The notes beneath the pieces were generated by a model. It made no database searches, had not been told where the DNA came from, and was given only the letters and a program-made list of their open reading frames with translations. Both the position numbers and the translations under genes were made by a program. A stretch of 64,000 nt of DNA from assembly GCF_003334305.1 (NCBI RefSeq), contig NZ_QOWS01000025.1. One strand, 5' to 3'. Source of the stretch: Escherichia coli (lineage in GTDB: Bacteria; Pseudomonadota; Gammaproteobacteria; Enterobacterales; Enterobacteriaceae). Of the stretch, positions 3,837 to 57,499 are shown in pieces. Positions within the stretch are counted from its first letter, which is position 1; each line of letters begins with the position of its first letter.

Positions 3837-6479
3837 TTACTGGTTTACTGAAATTGAAGTCGGAGGTTCCGTTGGCGTCACCCGCTGTGTCTGTTCCTGA
3901 ATCGCCGGTTTGACCGCCGGCGAAGTGATAGGTGCTACATTGCCTTTATGCTGGCATGGCAGTAACAAGCCGTTAAACAGATCGGCAGGCAGCGGGTCCG
4001 GCAGGTTGATATCGCAATGCGCAACACCACTCCAGAACACACTCATGTGTTCGCCAGGTTTCACCCCAGCCAGATAAACATTGCCGTCATCATCGACAAG
4101 GCCCACTGTCTGCTCGTTATCATTTTTTACTTCTGCGCCAAACGGAGGATGGCTGCCGTCTTGTAAACGCAGCACCGCCATCGCTTTTTGACCACTGATG
4201 ACGGCAAATTTGCGGTAGCCAATCGCCCCTTCAGTTAGCGTGGCTTGTACCACCGACTGGGTTGCTTCGGCGTTTTCCGGCAGTTTGTTGAGGTCGATAT
4301 ACGCCTGATTGCGGTAATAGTTATTGACGTCAGAAACGACGGCTTTACCAAACATATTGGTATAAACAGCAGCACCGTTACCTTCTACCGGAACATCGGC
4401 AACGCCATCGGCATCAATCAACAAGCGTGTCCCGCCCATATTCTGGGTACGGTGAAGTGCGCCACCGTGGGCAGTAAGCGTTGCGCCGCCCTGTAACGAC
4501 AAGCCCGCAGAGGTGTATTGCCCTTCATGGTAGTTCGCACTGAGGTCAACCTGCGCCAGCGAACCATCATGGCTGTAATAGCCGTCAACGCTGGTGTGTT
4601 TGTCACTGGTGCCGACGTTCAACTGATAGTGAGTCGCGTCATCGACACGGCTGAAATAACCGACCTGACTGCTGTCCGTCCCACTGCCATAGTTACCGTT
4701 ATAGCTAACGGTACTGTTGTCGCCCCACGGCATACTGAGCGAAATGTACATGCCTTTGTCGGCCTGGTTGTCATACTCGTAACGGTAGCCAGTCATCGAG
4801 ATGCTGACATTACGAATACTGCCCATATTGAAATAGTGCGAGAGCATGATGTTGTAGTTTGTCTGCTCCTCGCGATCCCAGTAGGTATGGCGGGTATAGT
4901 TGAGATAAACCGAAACACCCGCATCGCGGAAGTTCTGGTTATAAGTGGCGGTGTACATCTCTTTGTCGTTGCCCGTGCGTACCATTCCGCTGTCACTGGC
5001 ATCCAGATACTCGCTCATGGTCATAAAGTTCTCTTCCGAGAAGCGATATCCAGCAAAAGTAACGCGGCTGTTGAGCTGGTCAAAGTCTTTGGAATAACTC
5101 ACACGGAAGGAGTTACCGTCCAGCGAACCTTTGCCATAAGCGGTGTCTTTATCCAGTTTGGTGTGCGAGTGAGTAACATCAAACGCGACCGCGCCGAATG
5201 TAGACAAATCGCGACCGACGCCAAGCGCCGCAGACTGATAGTTTTCATCTCCCAGTGCGCCGCCATATAACGACCAGCCGTTAGCGATCCCCCAGGAAGC
5301 TTCAGCACCAGAAAAAAATTCACCCTCGACATGGTGTCCCCACTCTTGCGGACGGCCCATCATGATCTTATAGCGAACCTGACCTGGGCGAGTGAGGTAT
5401 GGCATCGAGGCGGTGCTGATGTCATATTCCTGCACCTGGCCGTTCTGTTCTTCAATGCGAATATGCAACGTACCGGAGACAGAATCACCAAGATCCTGAA
5501 TACGAAACGGTCCAGCCGGAACCTGCGTTTCGTAAATCACACGCCCCATCTGGCTGACGGTCACTTTTGCTGTGGTGTGTGCCACGCCGGAAATGTCTGG
5601 CGCGTAGCCGCGCAGATTGGGAGGCAACATTTGATCGTCAGTACTGACACTGCCACCAACATAGTTAAAACCATCAAAAATATCGGATCTGAGGTAATCC
5701 TCGCCCAGCGCCAGTTTGGCTTTTAATGATGGTAACGCCCGCCAGGCATAGTAGCGACTCCACTCCCATTTTTTTTGAGTTTCATCGCCGCTGAATTCAT
5801 CGTCATCATTACTGCGAGTATGTTGATAGTTAGTCTGCCAGTCAGCACGCATACGCCACGGCCCCAGGTTAACCCCGACCGTCCCGTTGCCGCTGATCTC
5901 GTTACTATCATCACCGCCATTTTCTTCGTGCCGGGTTTGTGCGTTGATGCTGTAGTCCGCGACGATCCCGGAGATGCCGTCATCCCAACGTGAAGGCGGA
6001 TCCCAGTCGGGATAAGTATATTCGAGGTAAGCCTGTGGCAGTGAAATGACTAATGCGGACTGGCTTAAATCAGCCTTAATTTCCATGCCTTCCAGTTGAC
6101 CGGATTTCAGGCATTTAGCATCGTGGCTCCATTGCAGATTTTTCGCCACGTCTTCTTTTAAACCAAACTGCGCTACCAGTTCCGGTGTCAGACAAGCATA
6201 GCTTTTGCTCGCGTCATCTTCACCAGCATACCAGTAAATATCGTACTCTTCCGCCAATGGCTGTTTATTTAGTTGAACCTGTAAATTGTATTTTCCGGGC
6301 TCAACATATCCCTGGCTGGAAAAACGCTTCAGATCAATTTTTGTGTCGCCTTTTAATTCCAGAAAACGGGAATCAAACTGAATGTCGTCTTCAGCCCAGA
6401 CACTGCTATAACTCCCTGACATTGCCAGCGCAATGCACCACGGAAGAATCCGTAATCGAAAAAGAGAATGGTCAGGCAT
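3837..6479 (-). CDS. yfcU: outer-membrane fimbrial usher YfcU, full length
   Basis: Uninterrupted 880-aa ORF with signal peptide, typical usher size; in K-12 this gene is a disrupted pseudogene. Confidence 0.9.
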   Translation of the reverse strand: MPDHSLFRLRILPWCIALAMSGSYSSVWAEDDIQFDSRFLELKGDTKIDLKRFSSQGYVEPGKYNLQVQLNKQPLAEEYDIYWYAGEDDASKSYACLTPELVAQFGLKEDVAKNLQWSHDAKCLKSGQLEGMEIKADLSQSALVISLPQAYLEYTYPDWDPPSRWDDGISGIVADYSINAQTRHEENGGDDSNEISGNGTVGVNLGPWRMRADWQTNYQHTRSNDDDEFSGDETQKKWEWSRYYAWRALPSLKAKLALGEDYLRSDIFDGFNYVGGSVSTDDQMLPPNLRGYAPDISGVAHTTAKVTVSQMGRVIYETQVPAGPFRIQDLGDSVSGTLHIRIEEQNGQVQEYDISTASMPYLTRPGQVRYKIMMGRPQEWGHHVEGEFFSGAEASWGIANGWSLYGGALGDENYQSAALGVGRDLSTFGAVAFDVTHSHTKLDKDTAYGKGSLDGNSFRVSYSKDFDQLNSRVTFAGYRFSEENFMTMSEYLDASDSGMVRTGNDKEMYTATYNQNFRDAGVSVYLNYTRHTYWDREEQTNYNIMLSHYFNMGSIRNVSISMTGYRYEYDNQADKGMYISLSMPWGDNSTVSYNGNYGSGTDSSQVGYFSRVDDATHYQLNVGTSDKHTSVDGYYSHDGSLAQVDLSANYHEGQYTSAGLSLQGGATLTAHGGALHRTQNMGGTRLLIDADGVADVPVEGNGAAVYTNMFGKAVVSDVNNYYRNQAYIDLNKLPENAEATQSVVQATLTEGAIGYRKFAVISGQKAMAVLRLQDGSHPPFGAEVKNDNEQTVGLVDDDGNVYLAGVKPGEHMSVFWSGVAHCDINLPDPLPADLFNGLLLPCQHKGNVAPITSPAVKPAIQEQTQRVTPTEPPTSISVNQ

Positions 6480-55458: not shown

Positions 55459-55785
55459 ATGTTCAGGTCACTGTTTCTGGCGGCCGCCCTGATGGCATTT
55501 ACCCCGCTTGTAGCAAACGCAGGTGAAATCACCCTACTGCCATCAATCAAATTACAAATTGGCGATCGCGATCATTACGGTAATTACTGGGACGGTGGTC
55601 ACTGGCGCGACCGTGACTACTGGCATCGCAATTATGAATGGCGTAAAAACCGCTGGTGGCGTCATGATAATGGCTATCATCGTGGCTGGGATAAGCGTAA
55701 AGCGTATGAGCGTGGCTATCGTGAAGGCTGGCGCGATCGTGACGATCATCGCGGAAAAGGCCGCGGACATGGACACCGCCATTAA
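55459..55785 (+). CDS. ypeC: secreted DUF2502-family protein YpeC (basic, Trp/Arg/His-rich)
   Basis: 108-aa ORF with signal peptide ([21 protein letters not shown]) followed by a low-complexity W/R/H/D/Y-rich mature region. Confidence 0.8.
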
Positions 55786-55809
55786 ACACATTCGCCAATG
55801 GAGCACAAT

Positions 55810-55845
55810 GCCTGATGCGACGCTAGCGCGTCTTATCAGGCCTAC
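55810..55845. repeat. REP (repetitive extragenic palindrome) element
   Basis: GCCTGATGCGACGCTAGCGCGTCTTATCAGGCCTAC, the classic E. coli REP family sequence, in the ypeC/mntH convergent intergenic region. Confidence 0.5.
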
Positions 55846-55863
55846 AAACCGGCTCTTTAACGC

Positions 55864-55897
55864 GTAGGGCGGATAAGGCATTTACGCCGCATCCGCC
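55864..55897. repeat. second REP element (forms a BIME-like pair with the first; a partial third copy follows to about 55920)
   Basis: GTAGGGCGGATAAGGCATTTACGCCGCATCCGCC, then partial GCCAGATGCGACGCT. Confidence 0.5.
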
Positions 55898-55925
55898 AAT
55901 AGTGCCAGATGCGACGCTCATTCAA

Positions 55926-57173
<1,248 letters not shown>

Positions 57174-57176
57174 CTA

Positions 57177-57198
57177 AAACATAGCCTTTGCTATGTTT
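57177..57198. promoter_or_regulatory. MntR operator (palindrome AAACATAGC-N4-GCTATGTTT)
   Basis: Perfect 9-bp inverted repeat with 4-bp spacer immediately upstream of the mntH ribosome-binding site. Confidence 0.55.
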
Positions 57199-57213
57199 CA
57201 TGCTATGCCAAAC

Positions 57214-57234
57214 GAGAATGATTATCAAATTCAT
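57214..57234. promoter_or_regulatory. Fur box upstream of mntH
   Basis: Minus-strand GATAATCATTCTC matches the Fur consensus core GATAATCATTATC with one mismatch. Confidence 0.5.
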
Positions 57235-57499
57235 TTAAATGGGTTGTGGTGATTTCTCTGATAGACCTGGATTATGACTACGAAAAGATTGATGACTTGA
57301 ATGTTATGGTTATGTTTAATGTTAGCACATTTACATAACTTTCAGCTTCCATACACAACATAGCAGAAATGTATGACAGATCACTATTTTTGAAGCTTGT
57401 CACAGGACGTCATTATAGTGTGTGTCAGATCTCGTTTTCCTTAACCATGTTACATAGAATGTGCACGGAAATTTAACCTGCCTCATATTTGGAGCAAAT

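Follow-up and report, generated by a model that had tools for sequence, protein, structure and literature searches.

The 64,000-nt stretch of Escherichia coli DNA analyzed here (contig NZ_QOWS01000025.1; referred to as the window) carries a cluster of repetitive extragenic palindromic (REP) sequences between the converging genes ypeC and mntH. Clusters of this kind are known as bacterial interspersed mosaic elements (BIMEs). By open reading frames (ORFs) and annotation, ypeC occupies 55459-55785 on the + strand and mntH occupies 55926-57164 on the - strand, leaving a 140-nt spacer at 55786-55925 to which the whole REP element is confined; it is thus entirely extragenic. The gene names come from the annotation of matching E. 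coli genomes, and the gene order is as in K-12, with yfeO upstream and nupC beyond mntH. Searched with a 642-nt query that spans the site, 5,425 of 5,426 complete E. coli genomes give a match, strain A7 at 100% identity. The same 140-nt spacer is present in K-12 MG1655, where 171 aligned nt contain 5 substitutions. A preliminary description of the window had reported a BIME-like REP cluster at 55810-55920, with at least two inverted REPs and a partial third in the space between convergent ypeC and mntH. Its coordinates are right to within 1-2 nt, all three copies can be read from the sequence, and its gene names and orientations agree with the annotation.

The spacer begins after the ypeC stop codon (TAA, 55783-55785, + strand) with a left flank, ACACATTCGCCAATGGAGCACAA (55786-55808), which possibly consists of a degenerate head of a y-type REP and an S-like linker. 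It is followed by REP1, a full z2-type REP of 37 nt (TGCCTGATGCGACGCTAGCGCGTCTTATCAGGCCTAC, 55809-55845). REP1 has the GTAG-first ("REP") orientation on the - strand; read along the + strand, it runs from its head to a final CTAC ("iREP"). A tail-to-tail linker of 18 nt (AAACCGGCTCTTTAACGC, 55846-55863) lies between that CTAC and the GTAG at the 5' end of REP2, a full y-type REP of 35 nt (GTAGGGCGGATAAGGCATTTACGCCGCATCCGCCA, 55864-55898, + strand) that is inverted relative to REP1. After a 4-nt head-to-head linker of S type, ATAG (55899-55902), comes a partial z2 REP on the - strand, comprising only the head half (TGCCAGATGCGACGCT, 16 nt, 55903-55918), with similarity to z2 ending after ...GACGCT. 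Seven more nucleotides, CATTCAA (55919-55925), lead up to the mntH stop, which is TAG and reads CTA on the + strand (55926-55928).

The E. coli REP is defined as an imperfect palindrome of 30-40 nt with a GTAG 5' of its foot and a mismatch in its stem (PMC3333891). At 37 and 35 nt, REP1 and REP2 are within this range. The GTAG is found on the + strand at 55864-55867 for the y REP, and its complement CTAC at 55842-55845 for the z2 REP; the partial copy lacks the GTAG end. Both full REPs fold as imperfect hairpins on both strands, with energies of -19 to -22 kcal/mol and z scores of -3.1 to -5.9. For the two strands of REP1, the values are -21.4/-21.9 kcal/mol with z = -5.9/-5.0, and for REP2, they are -19.1/-19.5 kcal/mol with z = -4.0/-3.1. 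The stem of REP1 is interrupted by a 1x1 mismatch at 55818/55833 and that of REP2 by a 2x2 internal loop at 55875-76/55889-90, such a mismatch or internal loop being required for binding by the REP-associated tyrosine transposase, RAYT (PMC3333891). Near-identical copies occur at five other K-12 loci, as expected of a multicopy repeat. The REP core pattern GATGCGNCG..CGNCTTATC has one match in the 64 kb, with 0.00 expected from 100 shuffles. BLAST to consensus sequences gives E = 6.5e-15 for REP1 and E = 3.5e-7 for REP2, which bears out the earlier assignment to a standard E. coli repeat class. The partial copy alone matches the z2 head at 15 of 16 positions with E = 0.09, being too short for significance. 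It is accepted as a REP because its register after the y head and a short linker matches the reference BIME-2 units, and further because it is letter-identical in E. albertii. The palindromes between ypeC and mntH are an ordinary REP pair plus a half-copy. The annotation that they call for is REP/BIME-2 rather than terminator, operator or small RNA gene.

The E. coli REPs fall into types y, z1 and z2. BIME-1 combines z1 and y around a long L linker that binds integration host factor (IHF), while BIME-2 pairs z2 with y, its S linker being short and its flanks being of the s/l/r kind (PMC3333891). As K-12 references, we used the rayT REPtron, whose copies are labeled y or z2 in PMC3333891, together with the loci sucB-sucC, tldD-yhdP and yaaX-yaaA. 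REP1 agrees with the K-12 z2 copies at 33-36 of 37 positions and with the y copies at 27-29. Conversely, REP2 agrees with the y copies at 28-32 of 35 positions and with the z2 copies at 24-27; to the published consensus GCCGGATGCGGCGTGAACGCCTTATCCGGCCTAC, quoted in PMC12306157, it matches at 31 of 35. Comparison with the REP/BIME consensus families, which the preliminary description had proposed as the check on its claim, thus fits REP1 to z2 and REP2 to y. The partial copy leans towards z2, at 13-15 of 16 positions with z2 heads vs 12-13 with y heads. The orientations alternate, and the composition is the y plus z2 of BIME-2. Compared by length and position only, the linkers of 4 nt head-to-head and 18 nt tail-to-tail stand beside 5-12 and 12-17 nt in the reference BIME-2 units. 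In comparison with BIME-1 and the related IHF-binding RIP elements, the linker is 18 nt and not about 35 nt, REP1 is 37 nt long and z2-like, and no IHF consensus WATCAANNNNTTR was found in 55786-55925 with up to one mismatch. As judged from its REP types and short linkers, the ypeC-mntH element is of BIME-2 type, not BIME-1.

The element amounts to about 1.5 units: one full z2-y pair, half a z2 and perhaps a y-head remnant at the left. The evidence for the last is of three kinds. The left flank forms a 23-nt direct repeat with 55890-55912 at 74% identity. Read as a y head (CATTCGCC aligned with CATCCGCC), it matches y heads at 8-9 of 12 positions. Finally, in Escherichia sp. E1V33, the left flank reads GAGTCCGCC-AATGG-TGCCTGATGCG, nearly identical to the right-hand y head, S linker and z2 head, GGATCCGCC-AATGG-TGCCAAATGCG. 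The left flank may be what is left of a further BIME-2 unit, which the E1V33 allele makes plausible.

A close likeness is to the REPtron itself (yafL-rayT-lfhA in K-12), which has the same REP types in the same alternating orientation. Its z2 copies are identical to REP1 at 35-36 of 37 positions and its y copies to REP2 at 31-32 of 35. The tail-to-tail linkers are 17 nt there and 18 nt here, both starting with AAAC, whereas head-to-head the REPtron has 12 nt and the ypeC-mntH element 4 nt. Unlike the REPtron, this element has no adjoining rayT, only one full pair, and a second z2 cut to 16 nt. The loci sucB-sucC, tldD-yhdP and eco-mqo also alternate y and z2 but contain 3 to 7 or more REPs vs 2.5 here and, unlike ypeC-mntH, have Topo-Seq cleavage sites for gyrase; the 5-nt head-to-head linkers of sucB-sucC and tldD-yhdP are near the 4 nt of ypeC-mntH. 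The yaaX-yaaA locus of K-12, of BIME-1/RIP type, resembles ours in having two inverted, tail-to-tail REPs between converging genes. However, its linker is 35 nt long, AT-rich and of the IHF-site class, as opposed to 18 nt without an IHF consensus, and it is filed under BIME-1 in a Topo-Seq table (5,566-5,670; PMC6379681). The K-12 region inspected for this locus was 5234-5682 of record L002. As a side observation, yaaX is a DUF2502 paralog of ypeC, and both paralogs converge on their neighbor with a REP pair at the 3' side. The small RNA family naRNA4 (Rfam RF02564) derives from REP325, described as a six-unit cluster (PMC4550694), and is built from the same REP units. Its model matches the locus with E = 3e-7 and 5e-6, with scores of 48.1, 42.7 and 25.5 bits that are below the gathering threshold of 59.5. 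Such matches are the expected cross-match among REPs, and nothing suggests that a nucleoid-associated RNA is made from ypeC-mntH.

The element is already known and filed as BIME-2, and in that sense, the finding is an ordinary one. Table DS3 of Sutormin et al. (PMC6379681) lists an entry among the "BIMEs2" at 2517921-2518008, 87 nt, in W3110-MuSGS coordinates, and this is the only BIME that it gives between 2,450,437 and 2,528,107. We mapped the coordinates from W3110 ypeC (2,516,447-2,516,773) and the end of nrdA (2,351,820); the nrdA-nrdB BIME and the 87-nt entry are both placed consistently by an offset of about +1,124. The mapped entry spans from the first base of z2 to nearly the last base of y. 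The "BIMEs2" list also holds single REPs. The RefSeq record NC_000913.3 has no REP features anywhere, even at the well-known yaaX-yaaA, which makes their absence from it uninformative. A full-text literature search on ypeC, mntH and REP found nothing specific.

No second REP cluster was found within the window by pattern or by BLAST to consensus. The table of 341 BIME intervals in 4.52 Mb would predict about 4.8 in 64 kb, compared with the one cluster seen (Poisson P about 0.05, marginally unusual). The same REP-free stretch is seen in the K-12 Topo-Seq table (2,450,437-2,517,921).

As to how the element came to be there, it would belong to a REP population spread and reshuffled in Escherichia by RAYT, also called TnpA(REP), a domesticated Y1 transposase. 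K-12 encodes rayT flanked by the same y and z2 types. RAYT cuts single-stranded BIMEs at a C/T junction, in the motifs TGCC/TGAT and GGCC/TACA that flank the iREP, and it needs a neighboring REP that bears a GTAG (PMC3333891). The full z2 has both motifs, TGCC/TGAT at 55809-55816 and GGCC/TACA at 55839-55846. On the + strand, the y REP and the upstream z2 iREP thus form a putative RAYT substrate in which neither motif is altered. In the half z2, the sequence is TGCC/AGAT, without the T that is essential for RAYT cleavage. Later on, the element would have been remodeled through short direct repeats, between which small stretches were deleted or duplicated. We considered whether the end of the partial z2 (...GACGC/T) is the footprint of a RAYT junction. 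It is compatible with one, but a CT falls within 1 nt by chance about once in 6-8 trials, and the footprint is disfavored because the other deletion boundaries lie in direct repeats of AAAC, CGCGTC and CATTWAAC, not at C/T sites.

The same gene pair in related genera indicates what preceded the REPs. Citrobacter werkmanii, Citrobacter sp. R56, Citrobacter sp. NCU1, C. sedlakii and Franconibacter helveticus all keep ypeC and mntH in converging orientation, and no REP was found in the ypeC-mntH spacer of any of these five genomes. Instead, all five spacers have a hairpin with a G+C core followed by a T tract, for example AAAAAAAGAGCC-TTCG-GGCTCTTTTTT, and in three of the five, this is so on both strands. 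These terminators are at L015 9495-9545, L020 2760-2810, L029 5070-5110, L024 1745-1780 and L028 955-995. They were recognized by a custom test, applied to both strands, for a G+C-core hairpin with at least five T in the next 8 nt. This replaced a built-in terminator scan, by which only the hairpin of C. sedlakii was called; the scan probably missed the others because their T tract is taken up in pairing with an A tract, at the expense of the tail. By contrast, a consensus scan found no intrinsic terminator in the spacer of the window, and no hairpin with a T tract was found on either strand of three Escherichia alleles. The preliminary description had warned that the palindromes could be confused with a terminator; G+C-rich hairpins are indeed present, and the signature of an intrinsic terminator is not. 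By parsimony, the terminator is ancestral, and the REPs are its replacement in Escherichia. We also asked whether the 8-mer GGCTCTTT in the linker is a relic of an arm of the Citrobacter terminator (GGGCTCTTTT). This is rejected because that position reads CCGCTCCATTT in E. whittamii, CAGATCCATTT in E1V33 and CGTTCCATTA in E. albertii; the 8-mer is a derived product of a 2-nt deletion, and the likeness is a coincidence.

We favor an explanation in which a standard BIME-2-type REP cluster, probably spread by RAYT, would supply protective 3' hairpins for both converging transcripts, and we assign it a probability of roughly 85%. Both transcripts would run into the REPs in a spacer without an intrinsic terminator. 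Since there is no such terminator, transcription would be expected to end diffusely further downstream, most likely by Rho. Exonucleases working from 3' to 5' would then shorten the RNAs as far as the stable REP hairpins, which have no U tract and lie in the order z2 then y in the ypeC mRNA and y then z2 in the mntH mRNA. The hairpins would both define and protect the mature 3' ends, and the REP pair would fill the place of the bidirectional intrinsic terminator of Citrobacter and Franconibacter. The model is that of Dar and Sorek, in which U-less stem-loops, 24% of them annotated REPs, protect the 3' ends of Rho-terminated transcripts and have a rut-like (Rho utilization) signature downstream (PMC6061677); REPs as mRNA stabilizers go back to Newbury et al. 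1987, as cited there. The ypeC-mntH spacer is like these cases in having stable hairpins, no U tract, and C-rich and G-poor sequence afterwards, from which we infer the same role. Past the REPs, the RNA in the sense of ypeC is strongly enriched in C over G (C/G = 2.1, at the 99th percentile for the window), and that in the sense of mntH is mildly so (C/G = 1.28, 81st percentile). A candidate rut region is the stretch 55926-56045 in the + strand sense, which a read-through transcript from ypeC would include and which is antisense to the 3' end of mntH.

The natural history of the spacer within Escherichia was followed in E. coli alleles and in species-representative genomes, the latter found through a degenerate pattern for the MntH C-terminus. 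Several lineages of E. coli have the full arrangement, as do E. whittamii and a cryptic clade; a distinct species representative named "E. coli" is among the carriers. E. albertii has neither the left flank nor z2 but has a related linker, the y REP and an identical half z2. The half z2 is also near-identical in E. whittamii and the cryptic clades. Judging from this distribution, the partial copy is an old, genus-wide feature and not a recent truncation. Every one of the 13 Escherichia alleles has at least part of the y REP. Twelve have it intact; the exception is Escherichia sp. E1V33 (L025 10460-10535), in which an internal deletion has taken 19 nt from the top of the y hairpin. The z2 of that same allele has a compensatory change of C:G to U:A. 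In Escherichia sp. MOD1-EC7003 (L026), the left flank and the 5' half of z2, about 40 nt, have been lost between CGCGTC repeats, and E. coli strain 135 (L013) has a 5-nt duplication of GCGAC within z2. BIMEs are known to differ from strain to strain in their number of copies and in the sequence of their linkers (PMC3333891), and these alleles fit that description.

E. coli also has a short allele, seen in NZ_CP098919.1 (L006 620-700) and SMS-3-5 (L014). It is missing 74 nt, comprising the left flank, z2 and the linker (window 55788-55861). Its spacer is 67 nt vs 140, and its y REP begins 4 nt after the ypeC stop. Single-piece matches at 100% occur in 31 of 5,426 complete E. coli genomes (about 0.6%), SMS-3-5 among them. 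The breakpoint is between 8-nt direct repeats, CATTAAAC and CATTTAAC/CTTTAAC (also C(A)TTTAAC). The simplest reading of these repeats is that the short allele would have arisen as a deletion by slippage across the hairpin. We rejected the reading of it as an "empty site" predating the REPs: it is rare, every sister lineage other than E. albertii is of the long form, and the 8-nt repeats are at the break.

Nucleotide diversity along the spacer is given here as differences per site among eight E. coli haplotypes, a small sample partly chosen for divergence. The y REP is the most conserved part (0.027), followed by the tail-to-tail linker (0.036), the z2 REP (0.042) and the left flank (0.107). 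The most variable part is the S linker, half z2 and the last 7 nt, at 0.261. Third-codon positions are at 0.051 in ypeC and 0.125 in mntH, and the two full REPs are thus less diverse than the third-codon positions that flank them. The variable stretch, window 55899-55925, has at least five distinct haplotypes in E. coli, one of which resembles the cryptic-clade sequence. Its high diversity may come from haplotypes that are old or were imported, and not from a hotspot of mutation. In the 13 alleles, 98.4% of the positions that pair in the hairpins remain paired. A single compensatory change is seen among the 23 pairs, a result also reached by 57 of 500 shuffles. A single change that is not significant does not serve as proof of RNA structure by covariation, and we do not use it as such.

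Four points weigh against the protective reading. On the side of mntH, the skew that resembles a rut site is no more than mild. The conservation of the pair is almost wholly invariance of sequence, which could equally result from a constraint at the DNA level or from homogenization among REPs. About 31 genomes have an allele with neither z2 nor the linker, and z2 is absent from E. albertii as well; since such alleles persist, the full pair must be dispensable. Lastly, the label BIME-2 normally implies tandem copies, and there is only one full pair here.

A fuller history would be one of natural terminator turnover, which we put forward tentatively and would not call probable. In it, the ancestral bidirectional terminator would have been lost in Escherichia, and REP hairpins together with Rho would have taken over. 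Later deletions at microhomologies would have given the allelic series of full pair, y only, y plus linker, and half z2. The diverse partial-REP stretch would be either a hotspot of mutation or conversion or an old introgressed haplotype. The replacement of the terminator, the series of deletions and the old half copy neatly illustrate principles that are already known and are not new in themselves. Having the same gene pair with a bidirectional terminator in sister genera and with REPs in Escherichia, plus the deletion alleles, would allow a simple test of the role long assumed for REPs, protection of the 3' ends of Rho-terminated transcripts.

The alternative that survives best is that the element has no function, being selfish DNA left over from RAYT-driven proliferation of REPs, decaying and tolerated in the spacer. 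The number of structural alleles speaks for it: the 74-nt and roughly 40-nt deletions, the 19-nt deletion in y, the 5-nt duplication, and the want of z2 in E. albertii. So do the third copy, which is cut short with its C/T cleavage site lost, and the lack of significant covariation. Set against these are the retention of the y REP in every allele at a diversity below that of the synonymous-like sites, and the general evidence that REP hairpins protect the 3' ends of mRNA (PMC6061677). In addition, with the ancestral terminator gone, something must define the 3' ends. On balance, we find neutrality unlikely, while still taking it seriously.

A second alternative is a translational brake on mntH, in which a stem-loop within 15 nt of the stop codon stalls the terminating ribosome and lowers output; the 15-nt rule is that of Liang, Rudd and Deutscher, as cited in PMC12306157. 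The haplotype of the window lends itself to this, since in the minimum-energy fold of its mntH 3' end, the partial z2 pairs with the head half of y, and the resulting hairpin starts about 10 nt past the stop. However, this head-to-head hairpin is the best fold only in the window haplotype, and in 10 other alleles the y hairpin of canonical form is favored over it. The stems of the canonical REP hairpins begin 24 nt after the stop of ypeC and 27 nt after that of mntH, outside the 15-nt limit. The partial-z2 stretch is also the most variable of the spacer, which argues against a conserved role for it. We reject the hairpin as a conserved stop-proximal structure, it being specific to one haplotype, and a brake acting on mntH seems to us quite improbable.

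It could also be supposed that the element acts as DNA, as a gyrase site relieving the positive supercoils between the converging genes. Its z2 plus y composition is that of BIME-2, gyrase cleavage is enriched in a subset of BIME-2 with a preference for y REPs (PMC6379681), and a convergent arrangement is where positive supercoils accumulate. Yet in the table of that study, the mapped interval has 0 cleavage sites in all four conditions (ciprofloxacin, rifampicin plus ciprofloxacin, microcin B17 and oxolinic acid), whereas multi-copy BIME-2s score clearly, with 6/4/0/5 sites at sucB-sucC and 11/7/2/5 at eco-mqo. Most short BIME-2 intervals score zero there. On the available data, the ypeC-mntH element does not behave as a strong gyrase site, and relief of supercoiling is a very improbable account of its presence.

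Scarcely any credence can be given to a bidirectional intrinsic terminator or an IHF-binding BIME-1/RIP element, for either of which G+C-rich hairpins between converging genes might be taken: both are refuted at the level of sequence, the first by the lack of a T/U tract after any hairpin on either strand, and the second by the 18-nt linker, the z2 and y types and the absence of an IHF consensus from the spacer.

Two features further along in this region were noted in passing. The annotations of K-12 and W3110 include YpeD, a small protein of 29 aa encoded on the same strand as mntH and overlapping its first 20 nt (2,512,687-2,512,776 in K-12), which by analogy would lie at about 57145-57235 of the window. 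Both strains also have a copy of IS186/IS421 about 30 nt after nupC; the equivalent site in the window would be beyond 58702.

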